64,000 nt of DNA from the NCBI GenBank assembly GCA_036012905.1, contig DASCQF010000126.1:13165-77164 (forward strand), given 5' to 3'. Origin of the DNA: Vicinamibacterales bacterium (GTDB lineage Bacteria > Acidobacteriota > Vicinamibacteria > Vicinamibacterales > UBA8438). The position numbers and the translations under genes were made by a program. This document shows, piece by piece, positions 28,915 through 62,507 of this stretch. The first letter of the stretch is position 1. Each line of letters begins with the position of its first letter. The notes beneath the pieces are model-generated. The model saw nothing but the letters and a program-made list of their open reading frames with translations. It was not told the origin of the DNA and did not search any database.

Positions 28915-29556
28915 CTATACGCCGCGAGTCTCCGCGCCCCACAGATACTTGTGTAGCTGGATCTGCACACGCACCGGCAGATGGTCGCCAAGCACCCACT
29001 CGCCCAGCCGCGCTGGCGGCAGCGCGTCGTGAACCGGCGAGAACAGCACCGCCCCGCACCGCGTCGCGAGCGTGTGCCGCCGCACCACGTCTCGTGCGAA
29101 CTCGTAGTCGACGCGATCGGCAATGATGAACTTGACCTGGTCGCGGTTTGTCAGCCTCTCGAGGTTGCCCCAGACGTTCCGGCCAGACTCTGCGCTCCCG
29201 GGACACTTGATGTCCATGACCTTGATGACCGACGTGGGCACGCGGCCCACGTCCAGCTGCCCGCCGGTCTCCAGCAGCACGGTGGCGCCGTCGGCCACCA
29301 GCCGGTCCATCAAGGGATAGACGTCCTCCTGCAACAGCGGTTCGCCCCCGGTGATCTCGACCAGGTCGCACCGGTACTGCCCAACCTCGGCGATGACGTC
29401 CGCCACCTCGAGCGCGCGTCCATCGCGAAAGGCATACGGGGTGTCACACCAGACACAGCGCAGGTCGCAACCAGTCAGCCGTACGAAGACGCACGGCCGC
29501 CCGCTCTGGTCGGATTCGCCCTGAATCGAGTAGAAGATTTCGTTGACGGTCAGCAT
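28915..29556 (-). CDS. queE: 7-carboxy-7-deazaguanine synthase (radical SAM)
   Basis: [39 protein letters not shown] (QueE Cx14CxxC-type cluster motif). Confidence 0.9.
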
Positions 29557-29620
29557 CCCAGATGGCCTACATGGGGAAGCACCCACGCCCATTCTACCCG
29601 TGGCCTACACGACGCACCGG

Positions 29621-30337
29621 TCACTTCCCTACCTTGACCACGCCGATTTGCGGACACAAGGTGGATATGGCGCACCGGCCACAAACCGGGTAGACCGGCT
29701 TACAGACGTTTTGTCCCCAGGTCACCAGATACAGGTTGAGGAGCGGCCACCAGCGGCGCGCCGCTACCTGGTAGAGCGCCTCCTCCGTCTCCGCCGGCGT
29801 CTGTGTCTCAACCCACCCCAGACGGTTCGAGATCCGATGCACGTGGGTGTCGACACAGATGTTCTCCTGGCTCCGGAGCGCCACGATTAGCACCAGATTG
29901 GCGGTCTTGCGGCCAACCCCCGGCAGTTCGAGCAGCTCCGCCATCGTCGTCGGCACCTGTCCGCTGTGCCGAGCGAGCAGCAGCCGGCAGGTCTTCTTGA
30001 GGTGCCGCGTCTTGTTCCGGTAGAAGCTGACCGGATATATCAGCTTCTCGATGGTGGCCACCCGCAGCCCAGCCATCTCGCGCGGTGTCTCGGCTCGGGC
30101 AAAGAGCCGGGTCGAGGCCGCTAGCGTGACCGGGTCCCGCGTCTGGGCCGACAGCATCGTGGAGATCAGCACCTTGAACGGGTCGGATTGCTCTTCCTCG
30201 GCGATCTTCTCGACCGCCGGCTCGGCCATCTCGCCCATCGCGGCCCGCAGCCGGGGCATCACCCGGGCGACGTGACGACGAGTGGATGCCGCCGGGGACC
30301 CAACGGCACTGGCTGCTCTGTTCTTCGCTTTGCTCAT
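29621..30337 (-). CDS. nth: endonuclease III
   Basis: HhH-GPD: LISTMLSAQTRD and LPGVGRKTANLVL, then VDTHVHRISNRLG. C-terminal 4Fe-4S loop CKPVYPVCGRCAISTLC. Confidence 0.9.
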   Translation of the reverse strand: MSKAKNRAASAVGSPAASTRRHVARVMPRLRAAMGEMAEPAVEKIAEEEQSDPFKVLISTMLSAQTRDPVTLAASTRLFARAETPREMAGLRVATIEKLIYPVSFYRNKTRHLKKTCRLLLARHSGQVPTTMAELLELPGVGRKTANLVLIVALRSQENICVDTHVHRISNRLGWVETQTPAETEEALYQVAARRWWPLLNLYLVTWGQNVCKPVYPVCGRCAISTLCPQIGVVKVGK

Positions 30338-30370
30338 TACTGGATTCTTGCGAGCTGCGAACCAGATGTT

Positions 30371-30430
30371 GGCGAAGCCCTCCAGCTTCTCCTGACTCCT
30401 GCCTCCTGACTTCTGACTCCTATCGAGCGC
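30371..30430 (+). repeat. Hairpin-head plus heptamer array element (GGCGAAGCCCTCCAGCTTCTC then CTGACTC CTGCCTC CTGACTT CTGACTC CTATCGAGCGC)
   Basis: Read directly from the sequence, between the 2-hydroxyacid dehydrogenase stop and the nth start. Confidence 0.8.
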
Positions 30431-30433
30431 TCT

Positions 30434-31405
30434 TCAGAGGGCCACCGGCGTCACCGCCGGCCGCCCACTCACGACCTCCACCACGTTGCGCACGGCGAGC
30501 TCGGCCATCGCCGTACGGGTTTCACGGGTGGCGCTCCCCAGGTGCGGCGTCAGACAGACGTTCTCCCGGCCAACCAGCTGAGGGTGCACACCCGGCTCCC
30601 CCTCGTACACATCGAGACCGGCGCCGGCAATCAGACGCGCATCAAGGGCCCAGGCAAGGGCGCCGTCGTCCACCACTCCCCCACGCGACGTGTTGATCAA
30701 GAACGCCGATCGCTTCATGCGCGCCAACGTCCGCCGGTTGATCAGGTGTCGGGTGTCCTGGGTCAACGGCACGTGCAACGACACGACGTCAGATGTCAGC
30801 AGAAGTTCGTCGAGCGATACCACCGCATGGTCGGTCGCGGCATTCTCGGCGCCAGCACCGGTCCGCGCAGCGAAGACCGCACGCATCCCGAACGCCGGCG
30901 CAACGGCGGCCACGGCGCGACCGATCCGTCCGGCGCCGACGACCCCGAGCTGCTTGCCCCGTAGCTCGGCGCCCAGGAGGAAATCGAAGGCCCAACCCTT
31001 CCAGGCGCCGTTCCGGACCACCCGCTCGCCCTCACCGATGCGGCGCGTCACCGCCAGAATCAACGCCCACGTGAATTCCGCCGTTGCGCCCGTCAGGATG
31101 TCGGGCGTGTTCGTCACCACGATCCCCCGCGACGCGGCGGCCGCGACATCGATGTTGTCGAATCCGACCGCGACGGTCGCGACCACCTTCAGCTGGTCTC
31201 CGGCGGCGATCGCCGACTCTTCGATCCGATCGTTGAACATGCAGATGAGGCCCTGCTTCCCACCCACACGCGCGCATAGCGCGTCGTGCGACAGCGCGTC
31301 AGAGTGGTCGTGCAGGTCGATGTCGCAGACGACTTCGAGCTGGGCGAGCACGGCAGACGGCATCCGCCGTGTGACGAGCACGGACGGCTTAGTGGCCCCG
31401 GTCAT
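30434..31405 (-). CDS. D-isomer-specific 2-hydroxyacid dehydrogenase (glyoxylate/hydroxypyruvate reductase-like)
   Basis: NAD-binding GVVGAGRIGRAVA, catalytic-region NTSRGGVVD, and HLGSAT. The start is ambiguous. ATG 31405 lies inside the inverted-repeat element, and an in-frame GTG at 31381 is the alternative. Confidence 0.85.
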   Translation of the reverse strand: MTGATKPSVLVTRRMPSAVLAQLEVVCDIDLHDHSDALSHDALCARVGGKQGLICMFNDRIEESAIAAGDQLKVVATVAVGFDNIDVAAAASRGIVVTNTPDILTGATAEFTWALILAVTRRIGEGERVVRNGAWKGWAFDFLLGAELRGKQLGVVGAGRIGRAVAAVAPAFGMRAVFAARTGAGAENAATDHAVVSLDELLLTSDVVSLHVPLTQDTRHLINRRTLARMKRSAFLINTSRGGVVDDGALAWALDARLIAGAGLDVYEGEPGVHPQLVGRENVCLTPHLGSATRETRTAMAELAVRNVVEVVSGRPAVTPVAL

Positions 31406-31583
31406 AAATACGGTCGCATTCGGCCGCCGATGCATCCCACCAGGCGCGGCGCTGGGCTTCGGCTCAGCGGGGTCGACTGCTGCCGGTCTGCTCCCTCCTC
31501 GCGCCTACCGCGAGCTGTGTGCGGCATCCGTCGAGTCGGCCCTCGATGCGTGACCGTATTTTTGACCGGGACCACTCGGACGG
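31388..31583. mobile_element. ~195-bp element with 25-bp terminal inverted repeats, copy A (MITE-like or structured RNA)
   Basis: Left arm AGTGGCCCCGGTCATAAATACGGTC (31391-31415) matches the reverse complement of the right arm (31552-31576) at 23/25 positions. About 80-85% identical by eye to 62305-62500. It is flanked by the direct repeat CGGACGG (31381-31387 and 31577-31583). Confidence 0.7.
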
Positions 31584-31595
31584 AGCCGTGGGGGG

Positions 31596-31868
31596 TCAGT
31601 CGACCAACCCGTTGGGGTCGACGATGCCGACGAGCGCGGCATCCACCGGGGCCGCGCGACGACCGAGGGCGGCGCCGGCGGCCCGCCCCTCGAGGACGAG
31701 CAGCACCAGTTCGCCGACGCCGGCGCCAACGGCGTCGACCGCCAGCTGGGTCGCACCCATCGGTCGGCCGTCACGGTCCACCGGCTGCGTCAACAGCAGC
31801 TTCGCCCCCTCGAGAGTACGGTCCTTCTTTGTCGCCACGACGGAGCCGATGACCCTGGCGATCCGCAT
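31596..31868 (-). CDS. BMC vertex protein, EutN/CcmL family (BMC-P), paralog 3 in the operon
   Basis: MRIARVIGSVVATKKDRTLEGAKLLLTQPV...AVDAVGAGVGELVLLV...PVDAALVGIVD is collinear with EutN/CcmL. Confidence 0.9.
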   Translation of the reverse strand: MRIARVIGSVVATKKDRTLEGAKLLLTQPVDRDGRPMGATQLAVDAVGAGVGELVLLVLEGRAAGAALGRRAAPVDAALVGIVDPNGLVD

Positions 31869-31875
31869 CTCCCGG

Positions 31876-32196
31876 CTACCCCCCGGTGGAACGACGACGT
31901 GAGGCGCGGCGTGACGGCGTGGTCGCGACAGCCTCGGTGCTCCAGTGGTCGCAGATGCCGGTGACGCTCGCGTCGGTCGGAACCACTCGAGGGTGAAACG
32001 GGAAGGCTGCCTCTCGGCCGCGAACGAAGAACACGTCTTCGCCAGCGCCGGCTCCGACTGAATCGACCGCCACCAGCGGCGCTCCCACCTTCTCGCGCGC
32101 CGCGGACAGCGGCTGCAGCACGAGTAGCGTGCATCCGGCCAGACCGGGGTCCTTCGCGGTCGAAACGACGTTGCCGATCACCCGTGCGAGCTGCAT
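31876..32196 (-). CDS. BMC vertex protein, EutN/CcmL family (BMC-P), paralog 2, with a basic C-terminal tail
   Basis: MQLARVIGNVVSTAKDPGLAGCTLLVLQPL...AVDSVGAGAGEDVFFV. It carries an extra 23-aa tail HWSTEAVATTPSRRASRRRSTGG. Confidence 0.85.
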   Translation of the reverse strand: MQLARVIGNVVSTAKDPGLAGCTLLVLQPLSAAREKVGAPLVAVDSVGAGAGEDVFFVRGREAAFPFHPRVVPTDASVTGICDHWSTEAVATTPSRRASRRRSTGG

Positions 32197-32225
32197 CGAT
32201 GCGTGCTACCTGGAGGACTCAGCGG

Positions 32226-32501
32226 TCAGGCCGCGTCATCGGTATCGACCGCGTCGACGATACCGACAATCGCCGCGTCGATCGGACGGTCGGTGAGCCC
32301 AGCGGCCATTCGCGCCGAGCTGCCGCTGACCACCAGCACCGTTTCGGCGGCACCTGCGTCAACCGTGTCGACCGCCACCAGCGAGGCCCCATGCGCTTCA
32401 CCATCGGGTGACACCGGCTGCACGAGCAACAGCTTGCTCCCGACCAGCCGGTCGTCCTTGCGGGTCGCGACGACGGTGCCTACCACCTTTGCGAGGATCA
32501 T
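32226..32501 (-). CDS. BMC vertex protein, EutN/CcmL family (BMC-P), paralog 1
   Basis: MILAKVVGTVVATRKDDRLVGSKLLLVQPV...AVDTVDAGAAETVLVVSGSSAR...PIDAAIVGIVD. An upstream Met at 32525 is an alternative start. Confidence 0.9.
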   Translation of the reverse strand: MILAKVVGTVVATRKDDRLVGSKLLLVQPVSPDGEAHGASLVAVDTVDAGAAETVLVVSGSSARMAAGLTDRPIDAAIVGIVDAVDTDDAA

Positions 32502-32572
32502 GACGTCTAGATAGGAACGTGTCACACGAAGACGGCGCCCTCGCGTGGTGCGACGGCGGCCTGTCGGGCACG

Positions 32573-32860
32573 CTACTTACCCGTGCTCTTGCCGATCGGC
32601 AGGGCGTCTTCGACGTTGGCGTGGGGTCGCGGGATTACGTGCACCGCCACGAGTTCGCCGACACGACGCGCGGCAGCGGCGCCGGCGTCGGTGGCCGCCT
32701 TCACGGCCGCCACGTCTCCCCGCACGATCGTGGTCACGAGGCCCGCGCCGATCTTTTCCCAGCCGACCAGAGTCACCTTGGCGGCCTTGACCATGGCGTC
32801 CGATGCTTCGATCATCGCGACGAGTCCCTTGGTCTCCACCATTCCCAGCGCCTCGCCCAT
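32573..32860 (-). CDS. BMC shell hexamer protein (BMC-H, PduA/EutM/CcmK family)
   Basis: [80 protein letters not shown] is near-collinear with PduA. A GGAGG sits 6 nt upstream of the ATG. Confidence 0.95.
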
Positions 32861-32873
32861 TCCATGCCTCCAA

Positions 32874-33794
32874 CTACTGCAACTGCTTCACGGCATCTGC
32901 GATCAGTGCCGTCAGCTCGCGGTATGTTAATCGAATTTCCTCATCCGAACCTAGCAACCCGGAACCAAGGTCCAATGGCTGACGACCGGAACCGCCATGG
33001 GATTCATCACTGGCGTCCCGCGTTCCGGCCCGACTGGAATCGACCGCCTGCGTGTCGACCACCTGCTCGCCAGGCTGCGCCGGCGCCTCGAGCGTTTGGC
33101 AACTGAGGTCGGGGCCGTTTTCCGGGTCCGTCGGGCAGATCGGCGCCGGTGCCGCGATGCCGTAGCGATCCCGAAGGTCCTGCAGCCGGTTCACCTCTTC
33201 TCGCGATAGAAGCCGCTCTCGGCCCAACTGTCTGGCCACGAGGCTGATCCGTGCGAAGTGCTCCACCGTTTCCATCTTGTAGTAGGCCGCAAACAGCTCA
33301 TCCGCAACCGTCAGGGCGCCATGATTGGCGAGCAACAACCCGTCGTGCGCGCGGATGTACTGCCGCACGGCATCGGCCAGCTCGCTGGTGGAGGGGGTGC
33401 CGTAATCGGCGATCGGAATGCTGCCCAGCGTGGTGACCACCTCCGCCAGCACCGCGCGATCGAGCGGAATCCCAGCGACGGCAAACCCGGTCGCGGTCGG
33501 CGGGTGCGCGTGCACGACGGCCTTGATCTCCGGCCGGTTCTCGTAGACCGCCAGGTGCATGAGGATCTCGGACGACGGCTCGCGCTCACCGGTGAGCTTG
33601 CCCCCGGCGAGGTCGGTCGTGACCATCATGTCCGGCGTCATGAAGCCCTTCGACACGCCGGTCGGCGTCGTCAGTAGCCGGTCGCCTTCGAGGCGGACAC
33701 TGATGTTCCCGTCGTTCGACGCGACAAAGCCGCGCTCGTGCAGCCGACGCCCGACTTCGACGATGTCGGCCCTGAGCCGCTCTTCAGTCTGCAT
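32874..33794 (-). CDS. class II aldolase (fuculose/rhamnulose-phosphate aldolase family) with a ~90-aa C-terminal extension ending in an amphipathic helix
   Basis: Catalytic motifs are [19 protein letters not shown] and LLANHGALT (Zn His triad plus Glu, as in FucA). Residues ~217-306 are extra. They form a Pro/Gly/Ser/Asp linker, then [22 protein letters not shown]. Confidence 0.9.
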
Positions 33795-33807
33795 CTACTG
33801 ACCCGAA

Positions 33808-34077
33808 TCAGACGCTCGGTGCTCGCTTCCCCTGCTGAAACGCCGCGCGACAGTCTTCCGAGCAGAAATGGTGCACCTCGCCCCGACGACGCGTGGTCAG
33901 GGCACGCGACTGGTCGATGTAGGTGCCGCACACCGGGTCACGGACCAACCTGACCCTCTCTGCGGGAGGCACCTGCGGCCGGCTGGCTGCTCCTTGAACG
34001 AGACCGCCGAGAAACTTCCAGACGAGCCGCACCAGCAGCATCACGACCAGGAACCGGATGAGCCAGCCAAATACCAT
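33808..34077 (-). CDS. membrane-anchored YHS/TRASH-domain protein
   Basis: N-terminal TM MVFGWLIRFLVVMLLVRLVWKFLGGLV, then DPVCGTYIDQSRALTTRRRGEVHHFCSEDCRAAF (YHS/TRASH cysteine pattern). Its stop is 13 nt from the aldolase start. Confidence 0.7.
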   Translation of the reverse strand: MVFGWLIRFLVVMLLVRLVWKFLGGLVQGAASRPQVPPAERVRLVRDPVCGTYIDQSRALTTRRRGEVHHFCSEDCRAAFQQGKRAPSV

Positions 34078-34109
34078 GAGATAGCGGCAGGCAATGCGCG
34101 ATCGTGCCG

Positions 34110-34697
34110 CTAGTGCGCGGCGCGAAGGCGTTCCATGGCGTCGGCAGCGGCCAATGCCTCAGGGGTGCCAGGAGCAACGCGTAGAACCTCTTCCCAGGCC
34201 TCGAACGCGCCATCGAGGTCCTGATTACCAAAGGCGCGCACGATGCCGAGGCTCAAGATCGTCTTGGCATGCGCCGGGTCGACCTCGAGGGACCGGGCGA
34301 GCTGGGCCAACGCGCGTTCGGTGTCGTCGAGGTAGAAGTAGGCCACGGCGAGATCGGTGCTGACGTCGACCGCCTTCGGGTCGAGCGTGAGTGCCTCCTC
34401 GAACCACGGGATCGCATCCTCGAACTGTTGCGAGTTGAAATAGAGGTTGCCGAGATCGACGCGCACCTGGACGTCGTCCGGCGCACCCTCGGCGGTCTCA
34501 CGCAACTGGGCCGCCCGCGTCTCATCGAGCGGCGGCGGCTCGGGCGCCGGCGGGACCGGGGCGGGGGGGAGCGGGGACGACGACGACGCGATCGCCTCAA
34601 CCGGCTCCGCCGGCCGCTGGCTCCACACAATCCAGCCCATCAGACCGGCGGCGAGCACTAGCGAGGCGAGGAGTGGGATGGTCTCAGTACGATTCAT
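34110..34697 (-). CDS. membrane-anchored tetratricopeptide repeat protein
   Basis: N-terminal TM, a Pro-rich linker, then TPR-like repeats (LGNLYFNSQQFEDAIPWFEEALTLDP, LAVAYFYLDDTERALAQLARSLEVDP). Confidence 0.7.
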   Translation of the reverse strand: MNRTETIPLLASLVLAAGLMGWIVWSQRPAEPVEAIASSSSPLPPAPVPPAPEPPPLDETRAAQLRETAEGAPDDVQVRVDLGNLYFNSQQFEDAIPWFEEALTLDPKAVDVSTDLAVAYFYLDDTERALAQLARSLEVDPAHAKTILSLGIVRAFGNQDLDGAFEAWEEVLRVAPGTPEALAAADAMERLRAAH

Positions 34698-34772
34698 CAG
34701 ACGTGTCGAGTCCCTTCGTGCCGATCATAGCAACGCTGCCGGAACAGCGTCCAGCGGGGCACACCGGCGGCA

Positions 34773-35480
34773 TCAACCAAGTAGGGCGATCATCTCCCGA
34801 ACCGCGCGTTCGAGACCAACCAGCACCGCGCGGGAGACGATGCTGTGACCGATGTTCAGCTCGACGATCTCCGGAATGGCGGCGACCGGCTTGACGTTGG
34901 TGTAGGTCAACCCGTGACCGCCCAGCACCTCGAGCCCCTCCTCGTGGGCCTTGCGAGCCGCCTGCTGAACCCGCGCGAGCTCCACCGTTCGGCCTTCGGG
35001 GTTGGCGTCGGCGTAAGGACCCGTGTTTATTTCGACCGCGGTAGCGCCCGTCGTACGTGCCAAGGCGATCTGGTCGGGCGCCGCGTCGATGAACAGGCTG
35101 GCAGCGATGTCCGCCGTCTGGAGCCGACTCACGACATCGGCGATCACCGTCTGGTGCCGCCCGATATCGAGCCCACCGGTCGTGGTCACCTCGTTGGGAT
35201 GCTCCGGAACCAATGTGACCTGGTCCGGTGTCAGCTCGGTGGCAATCGCGACCATCGCGTCGGTCGCCGCCATCTCCACGTTGAGTCGGGTCGACACCAT
35301 CTCACAGAGGAGCCGCAGGTCGCGGTCCTGGATGTGCCGCCGATCACCGCGTAGATGTATGGTGATGCCGTCGGCGCCGGCCAACTCTGCCAGTGCCGCC
35401 GCCGTCACCGGCTCCGGTTCGCGCGCGCGGCGCGCTTGTCGGATAGTCGCCACGTGGTCGATGTTGACACCCAGCCGCAT
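34773..35480 (-). CDS. pdxJ: pyridoxine 5'-phosphate synthase
   Basis: [27 protein letters not shown], and EINTG / HGL motifs. An upstream Met at 35504 is an alternative start. Confidence 0.9.
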
Positions 35481-35514
35481 GATCCCTCCATCACGGTCAG
35501 ACATTAGAAGTGGT

Positions 35515-35571
35515 GGCGAAGCCCACAGGCTTTCTCCTGTCTCCTGCCTCCTGTCTCCCGACTTCTAGAGC
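35515..35571 (+). repeat. Hairpin-head plus heptamer array element (GGCGAAGCCCACAGGCTTTCTC then CTGTCTC CTGCCTC CTGTCTC CCGACTT CTAGAGC)
   Basis: Read directly from the sequence, between the glmM stop and the pdxJ start. Confidence 0.8.
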
Positions 35572-35578
35572 ATTCGTC

Positions 35579-36928
35579 CTACCCGAGCTCTGCCCGCACG
35601 CGTTGCTCAATCGTCTCGGCGAGACCCTCGATCGCTGCCTGATCAGGTCCTTCTACCATGATCCGCACAAGCGGCTCTGTTCCCGAGTAGCGGACGAGTA
35701 CTCGACCCTCCCCCTCGAGATCGCGCTCGGCCCTCTCGATGAGCTGTGACACCTCCGGGAGCTCCGCCAGCGCAGTCCGCCGTCGCACCCGCACGTTCAC
35801 CAGCACCTGGGGCAACGGCACCAGGTCAGCAGCCAGGTCGGCCAGATCCCGTCCGGTCTCGATGACCGCCCGCGCAACTATCAAGGCGGTGGCCAGCCCG
35901 TCTCCGGTCGCCAGGTGGTCGGCGAAGATGATGTGCCCAGACTGCTCGCCACCGAGCGCGAGGCCGCGCCGGGTCATCTCTGCCCACACCAGCCGGTCCC
36001 CCACCGAACACCGGTGGACGGTAATGCCATCGGCGCGCAGGGCGTGCTCGAGCCCGATATTGCTCATCACAGTCGCCACCACCGCGCGTTGAGGCAGCCG
36101 CCCCTCCGCTGCCAGCCAGCGGGCCCCGATCAGCAACACCGCATCGCCATTGACCACCGCGCCGCGATGGTCAACAAATACCACCCGGTCGCCATCACCG
36201 TCGAAGGCGGCTCCCAGCCGGCATCCCCGCTCGACCACCGCCCGCGCCAACCGCTCGGGGTGTGTGGAGCCGCAGTCGAGATTGATGTTCCGACCATCCG
36301 GCGCATCGTGCAGCACGATCGGATCCATCCCCAGCCGACGCAACACGGCCGGCGCGATCTGGCTGGTGGCACCGTGTGCGCAGTCGACGGCGATGCCCAG
36401 GTCCGCTGGTGCCTGCACGCCGTCAAACAGCCGACTGGTGTGCACGATGTAGGGCTCGCCGCACGCGACGGTCTTGGGCGACGGAACCGGCGAATCCGGC
36501 ACCACCCAGGTCTGGTCGGCGACCAGCGCCGCGATCCGCGTCTCGAGGCCATCGTCCGCCTTCTCGCCGCTTCCGGTAATGACCTTGACCCCGTTATCCT
36601 GAAATGGATTGTGCGAGGCAGAGACGACGATGCCGGCATCGAACCCGCCGTCACGGGTGAGAAAGGCGATTGCCGGTGTCGACAGGAGGCCGCCATTTGT
36701 GATGCTCGCCGCCTCGGTCGCCAATCCGCGCGCCAACTGGCCGGTGATCCACTCACCCGACTCGCGCGTGTCGCGACCGATGAGCACGCGCAGGGAGCCA
36801 TCCGGACGTCTGCAGGTCCTGGCGATCGACGCACCAAGCCGTGCAAGGGTGCGCTTGTCGAGTGGAAACTCGCCGGGCGTGCCCCGAACGCCATCAGTCC
36901 CGAACAATCTGGCGGAGGAGAGGTTCAC
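35579..36928 (-). CDS. glmM: phosphoglucosamine mutase
   Basis: Active-site GIVVSASHNPFQDNGVK, FDGDGDR metal loop, and GGEQSGH sugar-binding loop. Confidence 0.95.
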   Translation of the reverse strand: MNLSSARLFGTDGVRGTPGEFPLDKRTLARLGASIARTCRRPDGSLRVLIGRDTRESGEWITGQLARGLATEAASITNGGLLSTPAIAFLTRDGGFDAGIVVSASHNPFQDNGVKVITGSGEKADDGLETRIAALVADQTWVVPDSPVPSPKTVACGEPYIVHTSRLFDGVQAPADLGIAVDCAHGATSQIAPAVLRRLGMDPIVLHDAPDGRNINLDCGSTHPERLARAVVERGCRLGAAFDGDGDRVVFVDHRGAVVNGDAVLLIGARWLAAEGRLPQRAVVATVMSNIGLEHALRADGITVHRCSVGDRLVWAEMTRRGLALGGEQSGHIIFADHLATGDGLATALIVARAVIETGRDLADLAADLVPLPQVLVNVRVRRRTALAELPEVSQLIERAERDLEGEGRVLVRYSGTEPLVRIMVEGPDQAAIEGLAETIEQRVRAELG

Positions 36929-37842
36929 CGAAGCCCGACCTGCACCGTTTGCGGCTCGACCTGGGTGACTTCAAACGCGCGGTGGGCCTCGACTGTCACC
37001 GACTGATTGTAGGTGCCGACCCCCAAACCGGCAAGATCGACAAAGGCGCCGACCGCGTTGTTGTCGAGCCCGCGCATCTGGTCTGGGGGGCCATGCACGG
37101 TGACGGTGACAGACGCTGGTGTGACCGTGACAGACACACCGGACGCCACGTTGCGCACACGCACCGGCACCTCAACCAGCGTGCGCTCCACGGGCGCTCG
37201 AACGATCTCCACCGTGACCCGCGCGGCGCGTGGCGTCTCGAGCCGCAGATTCGGGTCCTCCACACCGACCGTGACCACTTGCTCGACCGGCACCGCCAGG
37301 TTCGTCACGTCGATTGGCTCGGTAATCGCTTCGGTCAGCTGCCGTAACCGGCTCAGCGGGCCGACGACCGCCACGGTCGCAGGATCGGCGACGATCCGGG
37401 CGACGACGAACCCGGGGGCCGGCTCCCCTTTCACCGCCGGAAAGACCGGCACCATGCGGGGCGCCCCTTCCACCTCGAGCGTCAACGTCACTGTCGACGG
37501 GATCACCTGGGTGACCTCGACACCGAGCGGCGCACGGATGCGGCCAGCCGCCATATCGAACAGCCGCGTTCCTGGACGCTCAGCGCCCAGGTCGATGATC
37601 GCCGCCACTTCACCCGCCTCGAGACGCCGCAGCACCGCCGACGAGCCGCGCAACCGGACTTCCACCGTCTCCGGCAAATCCCCCAGGATCTCCACCGAGT
37701 CCGACAGATTCTCGAATTCCAGCGGAATCTGCAGACCCCGCTCCGAGATCGGCTCCCCGGCGACCGTCAGCCAGAGCAGCACGGCCAACGCGATCGCGAA
37801 CACCTTCAGCCCGAGGTCCCGAAAAAATGGAAGCGCCATCAT
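36925..37842 (-). CDS. cdaR: YbbR-domain protein (CdaR-like regulator of diadenylate cyclase)
   Basis: N-terminal anchor, then repeated YbbR-like beta modules (V.V.V.G.P..G). It overlaps both the cdaA stop and the glmM start, which is the conserved cdaA-cdaR-glmM order. Confidence 0.75.
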   Translation of the reverse strand: MMALPFFRDLGLKVFAIALAVLLWLTVAGEPISERGLQIPLEFENLSDSVEILGDLPETVEVRLRGSSAVLRRLEAGEVAAIIDLGAERPGTRLFDMAAGRIRAPLGVEVTQVIPSTVTLTLEVEGAPRMVPVFPAVKGEPAPGFVVARIVADPATVAVVGPLSRLRQLTEAITEPIDVTNLAVPVEQVVTVGVEDPNLRLETPRAARVTVEIVRAPVERTLVEVPVRVRNVASGVSVTVTPASVTVTVHGPPDQMRGLDNNAVGAFVDLAGLGVGTYNQSVTVEAHRAFEVTQVEPQTVQVGLR

Positions 37843-51290: not shown

Positions 51291-51839
51291 TCACTCTTCC
51301 GGTGCGTCGAAATTCTCCCACATGTACTCGGGCTGATAAGCGTGGAGATACAGGAAAACCTCGTGCACGAGGTTCACGACCCGGTTGACGCCATACTCGT
51401 GGTGATTCCGTGTCGCCACCAGTTCGAGCGACATGGCGCCCCGGGACAGGACGCACCGCACCCGGGCGCGACGGCGGTCGACCCGCCGGTGCGCCGGCAG
51501 CTTCGGTGAGGCGCGACCGGCGACGAACGCCTGCAGGTCGCGATGCAGTGGCGAGCGCGCCCGCACATTCGGCAGCAGATTCCGGAACACGAAGGCCCCG
51601 GTCCCGGGCGTGTAGCCCAGGGCCAGCGGCTTGGTCCCGAGCCATGAGAATCGGAACCGGTGTCGACTGGCGGTCGACGCCTGCTCGCTGAATCCACGAA
51701 ATACGCCGCGGTCGGCGTAGCCCTGGAGCCGTTCCCGAACCACGGCCAACGACTGGGTCGCCGTCAGCCGAGGTCGGGACGCCGGCCTTGACTTGCTGCT
51801 TTGTCCTGCCTTCTGCCTTCTGACTTCTGACTTTTTCAA
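51291..51839 (-). CDS. hypothetical protein (start uncertain)
   Basis: Long ORF with ordinary composition in its C-terminal ~150 aa. The first ~20 codons (MKKSEVRRQKAGQ...) are a translation of a heptamer array. The real start is therefore probably a downstream GTG/TTG near 51,74x-51,76x. No family recognised. Confidence 0.5.
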   Translation of the reverse strand: MKKSEVRRQKAGQSSKSRPASRPRLTATQSLAVVRERLQGYADRGVFRGFSEQASTASRHRFRFSWLGTKPLALGYTPGTGAFVFRNLLPNVRARSPLHRDLQAFVAGRASPKLPAHRRVDRRRARVRCVLSRGAMSLELVATRNHHEYGVNRVVNLVHEVFLYLHAYQPEYMWENFDAPEE

Positions 51840-51845
51840 GCGCTC
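51782..51845 (+). repeat. Heptamer array element (CTGCCTT CTGCCTT CTGACTT CTGACTT ..AAGCGCTC)
   Basis: Read directly from the sequence, just downstream of the ThDP-enzyme stop. Confidence 0.8.
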
Positions 51846-51846
51846 G

Positions 51847-53778
51847 TTAGTGGTAGTACGACATCACACCCGGCTCGATCTTGCCAAGGAATCCAGGCGC
51901 GTACTGATCCCGCAGCCAGAATTCCTTCTTCGCCTGCACGTTGATGACCGACGGTCGGCTCTCGTCGAGCGCCACCTGATAGGCCCGTTCGAGTGCCGGT
52001 CGGAACTCGCCAGGCTTGGTCACATACTCGCCATGCGCACCGAGAGCCTCGCCCATCTTGTCGTAGCGCAGGTTTTCCTGGAACAGGTGGACCGGCAACC
52101 CGACCGCGTTGTTGACCTGTCCGTTCCAGGTGCCCCAGGCGTTGTTGTTGTAGACGATGACCACGGCGGGTAGCCGGTACTTGGACAGCGTCTCCATCTC
52201 CATGCCCGTGTAGCCGAAACCGGCGTCGCCGGTGATGCCAATCACCGGATGGCCCTTGTACTCCGCCTGCGCCCCCGCCCCCTGTTTGACCGCCGCGGTC
52301 ACTCCGACGGTGTAGCCGACGTCGGGTCCAATCGCGCCGTATTGATAGGCACCGTTCATGATCTGCCCTGGCCGATACGCGCGCAGATACCGGCGCGTGT
52401 AGCGCGCGATGCCATAGCCACCCTGGGCGATCGTGGTCCGGTCCTGCGGCAGATTGCCAGAGTGCAGGAAGTCAGCCAGCTCCTTGCCGATGACCGCTGG
52501 GTGCACCGCGTCGGTGTAGCCCAGCCCGGTCTGGTAGTACTGCTCGTTTTCGGCTTCGAACTCGTTGCGCGCGGCCGCCACTTCGGCGACCCAGGCCTGG
52601 TGCCGCATCCGCGGGACGGCGTCGGCCAGCGCTTCGAGCGCGGCTTTCTCGTCGCTGACGATACCGAGATCGATCGGCAGGTTCCGCCCAATGTCCTCGG
52701 CCGCTGGATCGATCCGGATGTATTTCGCATCGGGACCAAACGCGAACTCGCCCAGCGTCGGCATGCAGTACTGCCCGACGAGCAGCACCAGGTCGGCGCT
52801 GGCCAGCGCGCCGGGCGCCGTATTGGCAGACAGCTCGTGGTCGGCCGGAAACTGCCCTTTGGTCGCACCCGACTCGACCACCGGAATCTGAGCCCGCTCG
52901 GCCAGGCGACGCAACGCATCCCACGCGCGGCTATGGAAGACCCCATTGCTCGATACGATGATCGGGCGCTCGGCGGCGCGCAGCAGCGCGACCGCCTGGT
53001 CGATCGCACGCGGGTCCGGATGCGGTTTGGTCTCGGTTCGATACTTCGTCTTGTCGTAGAAGTACTCGACGTCGCTGGCGTCCTGGAACCGGGCGCCGGC
53101 GATTTCGGCCGGGAAGTCCAGATGCACCGGCTTGGGCACGCCGCTCCGAAGCTGTCTGAACGCGTAGCCGGCATACTCGTGGATGCGCTCCGGCGTGATC
53201 AGCCGTTTCCCGTATTTGCGCATGCCCTCGGTGGTCGGCTGCTGATAGGCGTCCTGGATGCCGCGCTCGGTGTCTTCGGCGAAGATCGTCTTGTTGCTGG
53301 CCAGCACCAACACCGGCGACCGTGCCGAGTTCGCGGTCGCGATCCCGCAGATCATGTCGGTGAACCCAGGTCCCTCGGTGCCCGACGTGGCGGCGATCTC
53401 CCCGGTCACCCGGGTGAATGCATCGGCGGCATGGCAGAGCGCCCCCTCGTGGCGTCCGCCGTAGGTCGGGATGCCGGTGTCGGCAATCGCGTGGACCACG
53501 TTGTAGTTCCCGGGACAGCAGAACAGCGCTGCCACCCCTTCCTCCTTGCAGGCCCGCGCGAACACCTGCGCGCCCGTCATCGGAAAGTCAACATCCGGCA
53601 GCGGCGCATTCTTCGAGGCTTCGAATTCAGACGGCACGGTGATCGGATTCGCGTCGTCGTCCTCCGCCGCCGTCAGCCCGGCCGTGCCGGCGCCCAGCGT
53701 CGCCGCGGTCGCGCCCGCGCCAAGTACCGCCTGTTTCATGAACCGCCGCCGCGAACTGCCATGTTTGGAAGGTTTCAT
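51847..53778 (-). CDS. thiamine diphosphate-dependent enzyme (acetolactate synthase/glyoxylate carboligase superfamily) with a twin-arginine signal peptide
   Basis: [41 protein letters not shown] has SRRxFxK, a hydrophobic stretch, and AxA. The ThDP N-domain reads [15 protein letters not shown]. The ThDP-binding motif is [33 protein letters not shown]. Confidence 0.85.
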
Positions 53779-53856
53779 TGTCTGGCTCCCTCTTGTTCCC
53801 CATGCAGAGAATCGCATGTTGGCGCCTGCAAACGCAAGCGCCGTCGCGAGACTCCC

Positions 53857-54681
53857 CTACTGGGCCACGGCCGCCGGCACATCGCGGGCGCACCGCACAC
53901 CGATATTGCTCGTCTGACCGGTCTGTGAAAACGGCAGACGGACCGATGTCCGTAATGCTCCCGGGAAGTTCAGCCACGACCCGCCGCGGACGATCCGAGC
54001 GTAGCCGGTCGCCGCGCCGGGTGGATTGATCGGCGGCGACGACGCGTAATAGTCATTGTCGAGCCAACCGTCAACCCATTCCCAGACGTTGCCCGCCATG
54101 TCATAGAGACCGAAATCGTTGGGCGGGAAGGACCGGACCGGCGCCGTGTTCAGCCACTCATCCGCGCCACCGGTCGCGCCGGCGCAGCACTGGTCGGCGC
54201 CATAGTTCACGACGTCCCTGGACAGCTCGTCGCCCCATCCACCGTAGACCAGGCCCGGCCGATCTCCCCGGGCGGCATATTCCCACTCCGCCTCGGTGGG
54301 CAGACGGCCCCCGGCCCAGGCGCAGAATGAGGCCGCATCGTCCCAACTGACCAACACGACCGGATGCCGTGCACTCTGGCGATAGTCCGGTTCCGGTGGC
54401 GGCCGATGCCGCGTATCGAAAACGAACCGGGCATACTGCCTCGCCGTGACTTCGGCAGCCATCAGCTCGAACGGCACGACGAACGTGATCTCGTGACGCG
54501 GCCGCTCGTTGTCGAGGCAGGCGCTGTCAGCCTCGACGCAACCCATGAGGAACGTGCCGGACGGCACCCGGACCCAGCCGAGTTCCGGGGCGACCTGCGC
54601 CGCTGAAGCCAACAGCGGAGCGCCGCCGGCCGGCCGGACGACACCCAACATCAGCACGGCCACGACCGCCACAGCTCGCAT
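53857..54681 (-). CDS. formylglycine-generating enzyme family protein (FGE-sulfatase/SUMF1 domain), secreted
   Basis: Signal peptide, then ERPRHEI, WDDAASFCAWAGGRLPTEAEWEYAARG, MAGNVWEW, and RGGSW motifs. Confidence 0.85.
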   Translation of the reverse strand: MRAVAVVAVLMLGVVRPAGGAPLLASAAQVAPELGWVRVPSGTFLMGCVEADSACLDNERPRHEITFVVPFELMAAEVTARQYARFVFDTRHRPPPEPDYRQSARHPVVLVSWDDAASFCAWAGGRLPTEAEWEYAARGDRPGLVYGGWGDELSRDVVNYGADQCCAGATGGADEWLNTAPVRSFPPNDFGLYDMAGNVWEWVDGWLDNDYYASSPPINPPGAATGYARIVRGGSWLNFPGALRTSVRLPFSQTGQTSNIGVRCARDVPAAVAQ

Positions 54682-54690
54682 CAGTCGACG

Positions 54691-54730
54691 CTCTCCGTTT
54701 CTCTGCCTTCTGACTTCTGACTTCTAGAGC
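54691..54730 (+). repeat. Heptamer array element (CTGCCTT CTGACTT CTGACTT CTAGAGC)
   Basis: Read directly from the sequence, between the GGT stop and the FGE-family start. Confidence 0.8.
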
Positions 54731-54738
54731 TAAGGACC

Positions 54739-56604
54739 TTACCACCCGATCGCATACATCATCCGGCGCGGGTCGGCGCCCGCCATCATGGTGTCGGTCT
54801 CCGGGTTCCTCAGGATCCCCTGCATGTTCCCCATGGAATACTCACGGGCCAGCTCCGCGTCGTGTCCCATCTGGCGTAACCGGTCAATGACACGCGGCGC
54901 CACGCGGCGCTCGACGCGCAGTGTGACGTCGGCGCCCGGCAGGTAGAAGCTCGGGTCGGCGGCAAGCGAGATCCGCGGCGCCTCGATCGCCTCCTGGATG
55001 CCCATGCCGAAGTCAATCACGTTCAGCAGCACCTGGAACTGGGTCTGCCCGATCGTCTCCCCTCCCGGGGTCCCGAGCGCCAGGAAGAACTCTCCATCCT
55101 TCATGACCAGTGTCGGCGAGTTGTTCAGAATCGGGATCTGACCGCCACGCACGTAGTTCACATCGTCCGGGTAGGGCGAGGTCGAGCCGATCCGTGTGCC
55201 GTTGTTGAAGAACAATCCGGTGCTCCCCACCACCACCCCGGTGCCCCACAGGCTGCCGAGGGTCGGGGTGGCAACGACCACGTTCCCCTGGCGATCGACG
55301 ATCGAGAAGCTGGTCGTGCTGCCTGGGTATGTGGCTTCGCGCAGCATCGGTCCGGTTTCCGCTGCCGACGAGCCGAGCGATGCCGACGTCAGTTGGGCTC
55401 CAGGAGGCGCGCCATGGTCGGGGTAGGGCTTCGCCTGATCGGGCGCGATCAGCGCGCGCCGCGTGTCGGCGAACGGTTTGGAGGTCATGCCGTCTGTCGG
55501 CATGTCGGCGTGCTCCGGGTCAGTCACGAAGTGATAGATGTCCGATTTGGCGACCTTGATCGACTCGGCGACGAGATGCAGCGTCTCGGCCGAGTTGTGC
55601 CCGAGTGAGGCCACGTCGAAACCCTCGATCAGATTGAGCTGCATCACGACCTCCAGCCCACCGCGTGATGTCGTGGGGCTGGAGTAGACGTCATAGCCGC
55701 GGTAGGTCGTGTGAACCGGCTCCGCCCAGATCGGCTCGTAGGCGGCGAAATCGTCGCGCGTGAACAGACCGTCGTTCCGCTGATAGAACCTGGCCATGTC
55801 GCGGGCGATGTCTCCGCGGTAAAAGCGGTTGAATGCGGCCCGGAGACCGGACTCGCGAGACCCCCCGTCGAGTCTCGCGGTCTGCTCGGCCTCCACCAGC
55901 TTGTGGAACGTCCTGGCCAGATCGGGGTACGTGAAGAGCTGCCCTTCGACCGGTGGCTCGCCGTCCGGCATGAAGACCGCCATCGTCGACGGGTACTGCT
56001 CGAACAGCTCGCGCGACCGGGTGAGGGAGCGGCTGACGTAGCCCGCCATCGGATGGCCGCGCTCGGCGTACTCGATCGCCGGCTCGAGCACCTGCCCGAG
56101 CGTCATCGTGCCGAACCGCTCCAGCATGGCGACCCACCCACCAAGCAACCCCGGCACCACTCCGGCCTTCATGCCGCGATTCAGCTCTTCAGGCGTGATC
56201 TCGCCGGCGTCGAGCGCCTTGGGCGCCGCCCCGGTCGCGTTCAGCGAATAGACGCGGTCGGTCGCGGCGTCATAGATCGTCATGAAGCCGTTGCCACCGG
56301 CGCCCGACATCATCGGCTCGACCTGGTTCAAGGTGGCCAGCACCGCCACGGCCGCGTCGGCCGCCGTGCCGCCCTGCATCAGGATTCGCATGCCGGCCAT
56401 CGACGCCAGCGGATGACCGGCTGTCACGAGCCCGTGCACGCCTGGCACGGCGGGGCGATGCGCCACGAGCCCGTCTGTGATCGGCTCGGCGCTCAGCTCG
56501 GGCGCGACGTCGGCGGCCTCTTCGACCGCCGCCTCGCCACCAGAACAGCCAGCCGTCAGGACCACAACGAACAGGAAGGCCAGAGATTTCTGAAACTGCG
56601 TCAT
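54739..56604 (-). CDS. ggt: gamma-glutamyltransferase family lipoprotein
   Basis: Lipobox VVLTAGC. Autoprocessing/nucleophile Thr context GSTTSFSIVDRQGNVV. GGxxIxQ-like TPGGETIGQTQ. Confidence 0.9.
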   Translation of the reverse strand: MTQFQKSLAFLFVVVLTAGCSGGEAAVEEAADVAPELSAEPITDGLVAHRPAVPGVHGLVTAGHPLASMAGMRILMQGGTAADAAVAVLATLNQVEPMMSGAGGNGFMTIYDAATDRVYSLNATGAAPKALDAGEITPEELNRGMKAGVVPGLLGGWVAMLERFGTMTLGQVLEPAIEYAERGHPMAGYVSRSLTRSRELFEQYPSTMAVFMPDGEPPVEGQLFTYPDLARTFHKLVEAEQTARLDGGSRESGLRAAFNRFYRGDIARDMARFYQRNDGLFTRDDFAAYEPIWAEPVHTTYRGYDVYSSPTTSRGGLEVVMQLNLIEGFDVASLGHNSAETLHLVAESIKVAKSDIYHFVTDPEHADMPTDGMTSKPFADTRRALIAPDQAKPYPDHGAPPGAQLTSASLGSSAAETGPMLREATYPGSTTSFSIVDRQGNVVVATPTLGSLWGTGVVVGSTGLFFNNGTRIGSTSPYPDDVNYVRGGQIPILNNSPTLVMKDGEFFLALGTPGGETIGQTQFQVLLNVIDFGMGIQEAIEAPRISLAADPSFYLPGADVTLRVERRVAPRVIDRLRQMGHDAELAREYSMGNMQGILRNPETDTMMAGADPRRMMYAIGW

Positions 56605-56624
56605 CGGGGTCCTCGTCGTGGCGG

Positions 56625-56670
56625 GGCGAACGAAATCAGAAGTCAGAAATCAGAATTTGATGTAGCGCTC
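56625..56670. repeat. Heptamer array element, AT-richer variant (GGCGAAC GAAATCA GAAGTCA GAAATCA GAATTTG ..GTAGCGCTC)
   Basis: Read directly from the sequence, between the 542-aa ORF stop and the GGT start. The array is inverted relative to the head and tail, compared with the other copies. Confidence 0.7.
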
Positions 56671-56728
56671 ATAAGCTTACATCCGCGCGACGCCATCGAA
56701 CGACCGCGACGACCAGCTTCGGCGTCGG

Positions 56729-58357: not shown

Positions 58358-58369
58358 TGTCAGGACACC

Positions 58370-58410
58370 GGCGAAGCCGACCGGCTTCTCCTGCCTCCTG
58401 CCTCCTAAGA
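58370..58410 (+). repeat. Hairpin-head plus heptamer array element (GGCGAAGCCGACCGGCTTCTC then CTGCCTC CTGCCTC CTAAGAA)
   Basis: Read directly from the sequence, between the RidA stop and the 542-aa ORF start. Confidence 0.8.
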
Positions 58411-58412
58411 AC

Positions 58413-58877: not shown

Positions 58878-58888
58878 GCTGTTTGCTC

Positions 58889-59869: not shown

Positions 59870-59965
59870 TGATAGCTCCGATTACTCCGCGTGTGCTCCG
59901 AACTTCTGGTCGTAGCCCACACCGCAGTGGGCCCGGGAATCATACTGCGGCTTCAAGACCACTCC

Positions 59966-60004
59966 AAGGAGACAGGGGGCGGGAGAAAGTCGGAGGGCTT
60001 CGCC
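59966..60004 (-). repeat. Degenerate head plus heptamer element (minus strand: GGCGAAGCCCTCCGACTTTCTC CCGCCCC CTGTCTC C)
   Basis: Read directly from the sequence, in the divergent qor / glcF spacer. Confidence 0.6.
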
Positions 60005-60062
60005 AGCATTCGCTCTGCAACAGGGTGACAAGGCGGGTCGATTTTCGGCAGACTGTCACGGC

Positions 60063-62270: not shown

Positions 62271-62304
62271 GACCTTGGCGATGGCCATAGAGGTCAAGCC
62301 ACAC

Positions 62305-62500: not shown

Positions 62501-62507
62501 GTCGTTC

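Follow-up and report, generated by a model that had tools for sequence, protein, structure and literature searches.

Microcompartments of the PVM type combine three BMC-P proteins with a lactaldehyde-releasing class II aldolase, and they have no BMC-T protein. Their hosts are Planctomycetes and Verrucomicrobia, and an aldehyde dehydrogenase (AldDh) of the N-terminal encapsulation peptide (EP) type, a PduL-type phosphotransacylase, an acetate kinase and an alcohol dehydrogenase are encoded beside the shell genes. The HO (Haliangium ochraceum) and MIC3 types, which occur in Myxococcota and Planctomycetes, possess a BMC-P triplet and carry both BMC-T and AldDh genes in the main locus.

The ACI type was catalogued in 2021 from 125 loci (Sutter, Melnicki, Schulz, Woyke & Kerfeld, Nat Commun 12:3809) and is restricted to Acidobacteria, mainly subdivisions 4 and 6. 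An ACI locus encodes a PF00596 aldolase that bears an EP at its C-terminus, together with a PF00389/02826 dehydrogenase, three BMC-P side by side, one or more BMC-H, and accessory proteins without assigned function (Sutter et al. 2021). The ACI AldDh, a PF00171 protein with an EP near its C-terminus, is placed "consistently" on a satellite locus by the main text of the catalogue and on a satellite in "most" genomes by its Supplementary Data 2, where the ACI locus is always the sole BMC locus of its genome (Sutter et al. 2021). A main locus is defined there as one holding both BMC-H and BMC-P, and neither a phosphotransacylase (PTAC) nor an alcohol dehydrogenase (AlcDh) is described for ACI. 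PF00596 also features in types PVM and GRM5, the ACI aldolase is closest to those of HO and MIC3, and the ACI AldDh has a single close relative, the AldDh of MIC3 (Sutter et al. 2021).

The locus described here, from a 64-kb window (the whole stretch of DNA that was analysed) of an acidobacterial genome, very probably represents an ACI-type main locus, its host being a marine Vicinamibacterales bacterium. It is already known in kind and adds no new BMC type.

Architecture of the locus

The initial annotation recognised five consecutive minus-strand genes at positions 31596–33794, encoding a class II aldolase, one BMC-H and three BMC-P. The ORF listing and Pfam/NCBIfam scans confirm the five genes, separated by spacers of 13, 47, 29 and 7 nt, and the Pfam scan detects all three corresponding domains (PF00596, PF00936 and PF03319). 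Three further genes on the same strand had been missed: a TPR gene and a YHS/TRASH gene upstream, and a 2-hydroxyacid dehydrogenase gene downstream. The ORF listing and domain scans reveal a TPR-YHS-aldolase-H-P-P-P module, entirely on the minus strand, with the dehydrogenase gene 190 nt downstream of BMC-P3. The minus-strand module is a transcription-sized unit. A sigma-70-like promoter match (34724..34753, minus strand), agreeing at 9 of 12 consensus positions and bearing a TG extension, is located just upstream of the TPR gene and marks a possible operon start; four such sites, each a consensus match only, lie within 8 kb, where shuffled sequence would give 0.5.

Neither tblastn nor Pfam annotation detected a gene for BMC-T, an acylating aldehyde dehydrogenase, PduL/Pta, acetate kinase or Fe-ADH in the 64 kb, in agreement with the initial annotation. 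E. coli EutE, EutG, EutD and EutL used as tblastn queries gave no match in the window at E<1e-5, and BMC-domain queries matched a single gene, the BMC-H. Precomputed Pfam annotation of about 82 kb of contiguous same-organism sequence, comprising the window and about 8–10 kb on each side from contigs of the same organism, contains no called gene with PF00171, PF06130, PF00465 or PF00871, and no PF00936 or PF03319 gene beyond those of the locus. At a distance of 25–30 kb from the locus lie two Zn-type alcohol dehydrogenase genes and a glycolate-oxidase-like cluster.

In the BMC locus classification, this architecture is placed in the ACI type (Sutter et al. 2021). The likeness extends to the host, a member of Acidobacteria subdivision 6; to the PF00596 aldolase with its putative C-terminal encapsulation peptide; to one standard-motif BMC-H and three adjacent BMC-P in a main locus without BMC-T or AldDh; to the PF00389/02826 hydroxyacid dehydrogenase in the main locus; and to small accessory proteins of metal-binding appearance. 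One difference is the lack here of a helix-plus-cysteine protein of about 75 aa that most relatives encode. The BMC-P triplet is shared with the HO and MIC3 types, whereas the BMC-T and AldDh of their main loci have no counterpart near this locus, where no EutL/EutK-like gene, second PF00936 gene or EutE homologue was found. The proposal that the five genes represent an undescribed, aldolase-only BMC type is not borne out, as the architecture is that of the published ACI type, whose AldDh is encoded elsewhere. The competing suggestion, that this is a satellite of a core locus elsewhere in the genome, holds in one respect: an AldDh located elsewhere fits the literature. Its assignment of roles is reversed, since the locus, having both BMC-H and BMC-P, is itself main by the catalogue definition, and it is the AldDh that is placed on the satellite.

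Conservation and host

The host is a marine Vicinamibacterales bacterium of Acidobacteriota subdivision 6, and the exact proteins also occur in NCBI MAGs annotated as Acidobacteria or Vicinamibacterales bacterium. MAGs with these proteins have the locus-tag prefixes CL477 (MBQ01440–MBQ01446), QF572 (HJN45618–HJN45624) and QGI10 (MDP7480738–MDP7480744), and closed Vicinamibacterales chromosomes, among them OY759970.1, OZ241896.1 and OY762226.1, also contain the locus. Relatives of the aldolase are present in 586 species genomes, and the exact aldolase in 122 blocks of a public assembly collection. In the best 80 of the 586 genome matches, nearly all from Vicinamibacterales, Vicinamibacteria or Acidobacteriota, the TPR-YHS-aldolase-H-P-P-P module is conserved and the aldolase-H-P-P-P order is identical. 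No AldDh, PTA, Fe-ADH or EutL homologue lies within 10 kb in any of these 80 loci. Across all eight genes, dN/dS ranges from 0.02 to 0.36, values that indicate purifying selection and on which a pseudogenised remnant was rejected.

The same 80 loci bear on whether the genes belong, as a satellite or a fragment, to a PVM-type fucose/rhamnose metabolosome that keeps AldDh, PduL, acetate kinase and lactaldehyde reductase in a main locus elsewhere. The resemblance to PVM noted in the initial annotation is real as far as the three BMC-P, the class II aldolase and the missing BMC-T are concerned, but it remains a resemblance: none of the best 80 related loci (0/80) has the five genes embedded in a canonical PVM-type locus, and the core enzymes that PVM loci encode beside their shell genes are absent from the window and, within 10 kb, from the 80 loci. 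The host is an acidobacterium, neither planctomycete nor verrucomicrobium, and the aldolase differs in its aldehyde pocket and bears a C-terminal tag of its own. In the GC-rich PVM/HO-like metagenomic loci listed, the aldolases are only 36–51% identical to this one and the AldDh carries an N-terminal EP, as opposed to the EP near the C-terminus in ACI. The co-occurrence of BMC-H and BMC-P, defining a main locus, and the rule that ACI is always the sole BMC locus of its genome (Sutter et al. 2021) also count against a PVM satellite, which we regard as highly improbable.

Shell proteins

The BMC-H gene (32573..32860, minus strand) encodes a PduA/EutM-like hexamer protein of 95 aa (PF00936, E 4e-29) with the D-x-x-x-K and PRPH motifs, scoring 142 bits against the NCBIfam EutM cutoff of 133. 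It is 87–97% identical among the best 80 related loci. A protein search with this BMC-H, aimed at a paralogue adjoining an AldDh, returned at least 85% identity for every match with a reported identity among the 120 listed, and one match that was examined sits in the main locus of another marine lineage.

The three BMC-P genes follow on the minus strand. Paralogue 1 (32226..32525; PF03319, E 1.5e-30) is 99 aa as called, with the domain beginning at residue 9, and shows a dN/dS of 0.06–0.15 and the same position in the best 80 related loci. Paralogue 2 (31876..32196; PF03319, E 2.3e-26), of 106 aa, ends in a basic, Ser-rich C-terminal tail, and paralogue 3 (31596..31868; PF03319, E 2.9e-29) comprises 90 aa; the order of both is conserved. 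The paralogues are 47–55% identical among themselves, pairwise identities that are consistent with separate clades.

The aldolase and its C-terminal tag

The class II (Zn-dependent, FucA-like) aldolase (32874..33794, minus strand), of 306 aa, is presumed to act as signature enzyme and as lumen cargo. Its PF00596 match (E 2e-49) extends over residues 10–184 only. Sequence identity to E. coli FucA (PDB 1FUA) is 30%, and the two proteins share the fold, the three His Zn ligands, the catalytic Glu and an aligned phosphate-binding Asn/Ser/Thr-Gly set; E76, H95, H97 and H158, the Zn and catalytic residues, align with FucA E73, H92, H94 and H155 and are invariant among homologues. The Zn and phosphate sites are thus kept and the aldehyde pocket is unlike that of FucA, in which Tyr113 occupies the position of an invariant Glu118 here. 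Owing to this replacement, the assignment of a substrate, and indeed of a reaction type, is only putative.

An enzyme with the aldolase fold might instead act as a decarboxylase, epimerase or dehydratase (OtnC-, AraD- or MtnB-like) that releases no aldehyde, in which case the organelle would need no aldehyde dehydrogenase. The Glu118 substitution is compatible with such chemistry, as is the top NCBIfam match, a sub-threshold 3-oxo-tetronate 4-phosphate decarboxylase (140 bits, cutoff 250) that ranks slightly above the FucA models; a hydroxyacid dehydrogenase and small metal-binding proteins are likewise unlike the standard metabolosome core. However, the aldolase falls far below every NCBIfam equivalog cutoff with little spread between matches (PRK06833, 122 versus 264 bits; TIGR01086, 84 versus 400 bits), its best solved-structure relatives are L-fuculose-phosphate aldolases, and its catalytic Glu and three Zn histidines are FucA-like. 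The catalogue, moreover, ties an EP-bearing AldDh to ACI, which implies an aldehyde intermediate. Non-aldolase chemistry is therefore considered quite unlikely, and an aldehyde-releasing aldolase is retained as the working assignment.

Beyond the catalytic domain, a C-terminal extension of about 90 residues, absent from FucA, comprises a linker and a terminal helix. The low-complexity linker (about residues 214–284; 32943..33155, minus strand) begins with invariant Cys220 and Cys232 and varies in length between species. It is followed by a 22-residue amphipathic helix (32877..32942, minus strand), a putative encapsulation peptide on the basis of its conserved sequence, its hydrophobic moment and the structural model. 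In an alignment of 18 homologues, RLTYREL, L297 and DAV are invariant and the linker is variable; the terminal helix has a hydrophobic moment of 0.47 and a mean hydrophobicity near 0. AlphaFold places a helix at residues 291–305, within a low-confidence part of the model (pLDDT <50 for residues 233–306), and leaves the linker almost without regular secondary structure. Together, alignment, hydrophobic moment and model uphold the earlier description of the aldolase as tagged, the tag being the invariant amphipathic helix that follows the variable linker at the C-terminus.

Searches of plasmid and phage collections gave no ACI-like aldolase. In a metagenomic aldolase/BMC-H/AldDh locus, L108, the aldolase is 51% identical and ends in a similar C-terminal helix; this locus is suspected to be HO/MIC3-like.

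Flanking genes

The first gene of the module encodes a TPR protein of 195 aa with a hydrophobic N-terminus (34110..34697, minus strand; Pfam TPR families), which 71 of 76 related loci likewise encode upstream of the aldolase and which evolves with a dN/dS of 0.18–0.23. The next encodes a small YHS/TRASH protein of 89 aa (33808..34077, minus strand; PF04945 YHS, E 1e-7), kept in 72 of the 76 loci, in which a very hydrophobic helix at the N-terminus precedes a C-terminal domain holding three conserved Cys. Residues 2–19 have a mean Kyte-Doolittle hydropathy of 2.3, resembling a membrane helix, and the motif RDPvCGt...yFCS..CR is conserved in 76 homologues. Both genes stay with the module in a lineage whose flanking genes differ. 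As parts of the system, glmM, pdxJ, nth and queE were rejected, for they are not beside the module in another lineage.

Downstream of the module, a D-2-hydroxyacid dehydrogenase (30434..31405, minus strand; PF02826 and PF00389), glyoxylate/hydroxypyruvate-reductase-like and 323 aa as called, scores 320 bits with the NCBIfam glyoxylate reductase model, under its cutoff of 455. An equivalent gene lies at this site in 47 of the 67 related loci and in all five closest relatives (5/5), and the enzyme shows neither a terminal extension nor an amphipathic terminal helix.

In 57 of the 67 related loci, BMC-P3 is followed by a protein of about 75 aa whose N-terminus forms an amphipathic helix and whose C-terminus carries a Cys motif; this protein is absent from the window and from the five closest relatives, a marine sub-lineage. 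The published description of small ACI accessory proteins fits this family, with its amphipathic N-terminal helix, better than the YHS protein with its membrane-like helix. The sub-lineage has in this respect a reduced version of the system, from which further parts might be missing as well.

Search for the aldehyde dehydrogenase

An ACI-type AldDh was not found in the ~82 kb around the locus, nor among the matches listed in four indirect searches, based on the aldolase tag, the ~75-aa family profile, a metagenome pattern and the BMC-H. The 32 C-terminal residues of the aldolase, searched against 1.84 billion protein representatives, identified no AldDh with a matching tag; the matches were seven short proteins (35–145 aa), each aligned at its own C-terminal end. 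The profile search rested on the idea that the ~75-aa protein might be fused to the ACI AldDh as its terminal "EP plus 50-aa domain". It gave 4584 matches, and all 120 of those listed are short proteins of the same family, most of about 75 aa.

For GC-rich AldDh of the EutE/PduP/AdhE type, JGI metagenomes were searched with the pattern G[AP]GNxPxxxDE[TS]A, which yielded at least 80 loci, most composed of BMC-H, BMC-P and AldDh genes and some including further BMC-P and aldolase genes. Among the loci listed, these AldDh have no C-terminal tail, and their readable N-termini show EP-like helices. None of the at least 80 loci listed is ACI-like, and the remaining matches are AdhE-like or free-standing enzymes.

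These results bear on a reading in which the marine sub-lineage has no encapsulated AldDh anywhere in its genome, and the organelle, with the aldolase as its sole cargo, holds the aldehyde while it leaks out slowly or favours an aldol condensation. The absence of AldDh, PTAC and AlcDh from ~82 kb points in this direction, as do the searches without an ACI-type AldDh among the matches listed, the prior loss of the helix-plus-cysteine protein found in 57/67 relatives, and the wording of Supplementary Data 2, by which the satellite exists in "most" and not all genomes (Sutter et al. 2021). Against it, the searches covered the matches listed and hence carry little weight as to true absence, and the AldDh is equally absent within 10 kb in the best 80 relatives. 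As the catalogue places the ACI AldDh "consistently" on a satellite (Sutter et al. 2021), its absence near the main locus is the rule and no peculiarity of this genome. A minimal aldolase-only organelle is accordingly unlikely here. The corresponding picture of a reduced ACI organelle, in which a four-protein shell holds one tagged aldolase as cargo, the small accessory protein is lost and perhaps no AldDh is encapsulated, is held to be just as doubtful.

Discussion

Within the preferred reading, that of an ACI main locus with its AldDh on a distant satellite, a mechanism can be outlined. From established BMC biology, BMC-H hexamers would tile the facets of a small BMC-T-free shell and BMC-P pentamers would cap its vertices. 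The C-terminal helix would recruit the aldolase into the lumen, where the enzyme may cleave a ketose-1-phosphate, yielding DHAP together with a small, reactive aldehyde such as lactaldehyde or glycolaldehyde, and the shell would confine the released aldehyde. The satellite-encoded AldDh, which according to the catalogue bears its encapsulation peptide near the C-terminus, would then oxidise the aldehyde, and the untagged hydroxyacid dehydrogenase is probably active on the hydroxy acid formed or in recycling NAD(P)H outside the shell.

No substrate, phosphotransacylase or alcohol dehydrogenase is reported for ACI in the catalogue or the searchable literature, in which we also found no experimental work on ACI or Vicinamibacteria microcompartments. 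Some of the most abundant Acidobacteria of soil and ocean possess ACI organelles, and the present comparison shows that lineages differ in their accessory genes. With one BMC-H, three BMC-P and one tagged enzyme, the locus is a clean, compact example of the type that could serve shell-assembly and cargo-loading experiments. If the aldolase-only reading were true, it would represent a natural minimal microcompartment that simply holds back an aldehyde or drives an aldol reaction.

Gene content and type of the microcompartment locus

Five consecutive genes on the minus strand encode a 306-aa class II aldolase (32874–33794), one shell hexamer protein (BMC-H, 32573–32860), and three EutN/CcmL-type shell pentamer proteins (BMC-P1, 32226–32525; BMC-P2, 31876–32196; BMC-P3, 31596–31868), separated by short spacers of 13, 47, 29, and 7 nt. 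This arrangement was confirmed by ORF listing and Pfam/NCBIfam scans, in which the aldolase matches PF00596 over residues 10–184 only, and the BMC-H matches PF00936 and exceeds the NCBIfam EutM cutoff. The three BMC-P paralogues share 47–55% pairwise identity. A basic, Ser/Thr-rich C-terminal tail of ~20 residues extends BMC-P2 past its EutN/CcmL domain (STEAVATTPSRRASRRRSTGG; 31876–31938, minus strand). The initial annotation placed these five genes correctly but overlooked three same-strand neighbors: a gene for a D-2-hydroxyacid dehydrogenase (30434–31405) 190 nt downstream of BMC-P3, a gene for an 89-aa YHS/TRASH protein (33808–34077) 13 nt upstream of the aldolase, and, upstream of the latter, a TPR protein gene (34110–34697) preceded by a promoter-like match.

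The acidobacterial microcompartment (BMC) type ACI comprises 125 loci, restricted to Acidobacteria and mainly to subdivisions 4 and 6. The main locus of this type combines a PF00596 aldolase bearing a C-terminal encapsulation peptide (EP), a PF00389/02826 hydroxyacid dehydrogenase, an adjacent BMC-P triplet, one or more BMC-H, and a number of small, metal-binding-looking proteins of unknown function (Sutter et al. 2021). The window agrees with this description point by point. These genes constitute an ACI main locus, already described in kind, and the proposal of an undescribed BMC type falls because the gene content matches the published type (Sutter et al. 2021). The host is an acidobacterium, as the exact aldolase, shell proteins, and neighbors occur under the locus-tag prefixes CL477, QF572, and QGI10 in MAGs that NCBI lists as Acidobacteria or Vicinamibacterales bacterium. 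MAG CL477 contains two near-identical copies of the locus (MBQ01440-46 and MBQ01621-27), most likely two co-binned strains rather than a duplication.

E. coli EutE, EutG, EutD, and EutL queries gave zero tblastn matches in the 64-kb window, where BMC-domain queries matched one BMC-H and no second gene of this type. Flanking sequence of ~8–10 kb per side was read from contigs of the same organism; across the window and these flanks, precomputed Pfam annotation contains no PF00171, PF06130, PF00465, or PF00871 among called genes and no extra shell genes. The absence of a tandem-domain shell protein (BMC-T) and of an aldehyde-processing core from the 64 kb is thus upheld by both tblastn and Pfam annotation. 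At ~51800–64000, 20–30 kb from the BMC locus, lies a glycolate-oxidase-like cluster of two FAD_binding_4 proteins, the second of which continues past the edge of the window, plus an Fe-S/CCG subunit, together with a Zn-type alcohol dehydrogenase, a RidA-family protein, a gamma-glutamyltranspeptidase, an FGE-sulfatase-domain protein, and a 643-aa TPP enzyme. A tie between this cluster and glycolaldehyde or glycolate handling is conceivable.

The aldolase tag and active site

Alignment of 18 aldolase homologues reveals a variable-length linker after the catalytic domain, with differences of about 40 residues among most homologues, followed by a C-terminal helix in which most positions are invariant. 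This helix is amphipathic, with a hydrophobic moment of 0.47 and a mean hydrophobicity near zero, bearing out the earlier designation of the aldolase as tagged. The AlphaFold model, of modest overall quality, comprises an aldolase core and a low-confidence part from residue 233 to the C-terminus, in which the linker is almost devoid of regular structure and residues 291–305 form a helix. The variable linker and terminal helix have the standard anatomy of an EP. The linker starts with a conserved CQxLxAPSxPG motif (residues 220–232; 33099–33137, minus strand) and two cysteines invariant in all 18 sequences, C220 and C232, suggesting that the catalytic domain and the tag are separated by a metal or disulfide site.

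The nearest solved structures are L-fuculose-phosphate aldolases, and identity to E. coli FucA is 30%. Both the FucA catalytic Glu and the three Zn-binding His residues align and do not vary. At residue 118 (33441–33443, minus strand), an invariant Glu takes the place of FucA Tyr113, which lines the aldehyde site; this substitution points to another aldehyde product or to another reaction. The aldolase reaches none of the NCBIfam equivalog cutoffs, its best sub-threshold match being a same-fold decarboxylase. That the tagged enzyme performs non-aldolase chemistry is improbable, at roughly one chance in ten, the FucA catalytic residues being retained.

Accessory proteins

Of 67 related loci, 57 have a ~75-aa ORF after the third BMC-P (e.g., L017:12102–12323); it is typical of most soil and groundwater relatives, with more than 4500 metagenome homologues and no Pfam match. 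Its N-terminal amphipathic helix has the consensus ELRALVRxAIARHLG; an HxSH motif lies in the linker, and the C-terminal part carries C-x7-C-x2-C-x2-C. The window lacks this ORF, with just 190 nt (31406–31595) between BMC-P3 and the dehydrogenase gene, and so do its five closest relatives and the marine sub-lineage in which the window falls; the window is therefore a slightly reduced ACI variant. The N-terminal helix of the YHS/TRASH protein is strongly hydrophobic (mean Kyte-Doolittle 2.3, residues 2–19) and resembles a membrane anchor, not an amphipathic EP, and the TPR protein N-terminus likewise contains a hydrophobic segment. These features make both of them possible membrane proteins that accompany the shell genes.

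Conservation of the module

When one genome per species was scanned, 586 species had a relative of the aldolase, and the best 80 are nearly all Vicinamibacterales. Across these 80 related loci, the order TPR, YHS, aldolase, BMC-H, and three BMC-P is the rule. Among loci long enough to show each position, the YHS gene is present in 72/76, the TPR gene in 71/76, and the hydroxyacid dehydrogenase gene in 47/67. The initial annotation had alternatively proposed a satellite of a core locus elsewhere in the genome. None of the 80 loci has a homologue of EutE, EutG, EutD, or EutL closer than 10 kb, and the relatives therefore do not carry the same genes inside a canonical PVM locus; the locus is not a PVM satellite.

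As in the window (28915–37000), the module of most of the 80 Vicinamibacterales species genomes (loci L008–L087) sits between glmM-pdxJ and nth-queE, with glmM and pdxJ upstream and nth, queE, and queC downstream. Such a common housekeeping neighborhood indicates that the module has long been inherited vertically and was not recently transferred. In another marine lineage (L215), TPR, YHS, EP-bearing aldolase, BMC-H, three BMC-P, and small-protein genes lie among quite different genes; the TPR and YHS genes thus travel with the shell genes, unlike glmM, pdxJ, nth, and queE. Purifying selection acts on all eight genes (dN/dS 0.02–0.36 against three relatives). An alpha/beta-hydrolase (dienelactone-hydrolase-like) gene, lacking in the window, separates pdxJ from the TPR gene in roughly one quarter of relatives (L020:4217–5134 and ~20 others).

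Catalogued satellite aldehyde dehydrogenase and proposed mechanism

The ACI aldehyde dehydrogenase (AldDh) is catalogued as "consistently" encoded on a satellite locus (Sutter et al. 2021); Supplementary Data 2 has this "in most genomes" and gives the enzyme an EP near its C-terminus and, after it, a ~50-aa domain. No ACI-type AldDh was among the matches listed in searches with the aldolase tag against protein representatives, with a profile of the ~75-aa Cys protein, with a GC-rich AldDh DNA motif against metagenomes, or for BMC-H paralogues. The AldDh genes listed from the DNA motif lack a C-terminal tail, and many have an N-terminal EP-like helix; the ACI AldDh belongs to the C-terminal-EP type. 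These negatives are weak, as each covers only the matches listed. A truly aldolase-only organelle in this lineage, as first proposed, would fit them and is unlikely, given the AldDh satellites catalogued for the type. The metagenomic locus L108 (522–3331) runs aldolase, BMC-H, AldDh; the aldolase there shares 51% identity with that of the window and has a similar terminal helix (ELTALITRVATEVLKE), and its AldDh bears an N-terminal EP. L108 may be an HO/MIC3-like relative of ACI.

For the ACI microcompartment, general BMC knowledge leads us to infer a shell without BMC-T, in which BMC-H would form the facets and BMC-P the vertices. The C-terminal helix would bring the aldolase into the shell, where it would split a ketose-1-phosphate into DHAP and a reactive aldehyde held back by the shell. 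A separately encoded, tagged AldDh would then oxidize the aldehyde, as in the catalogue (Sutter et al. 2021). The hydroxyacid dehydrogenase encoded next to BMC-P3 carries no tag and so probably works outside the shell. Gene content, tag, conserved active site, conservation, and selection are the parts of this outline that rest on the present analysis. Taken jointly, the ACI identification and this outline are probably correct, and the window adds only a minor ACI variant.
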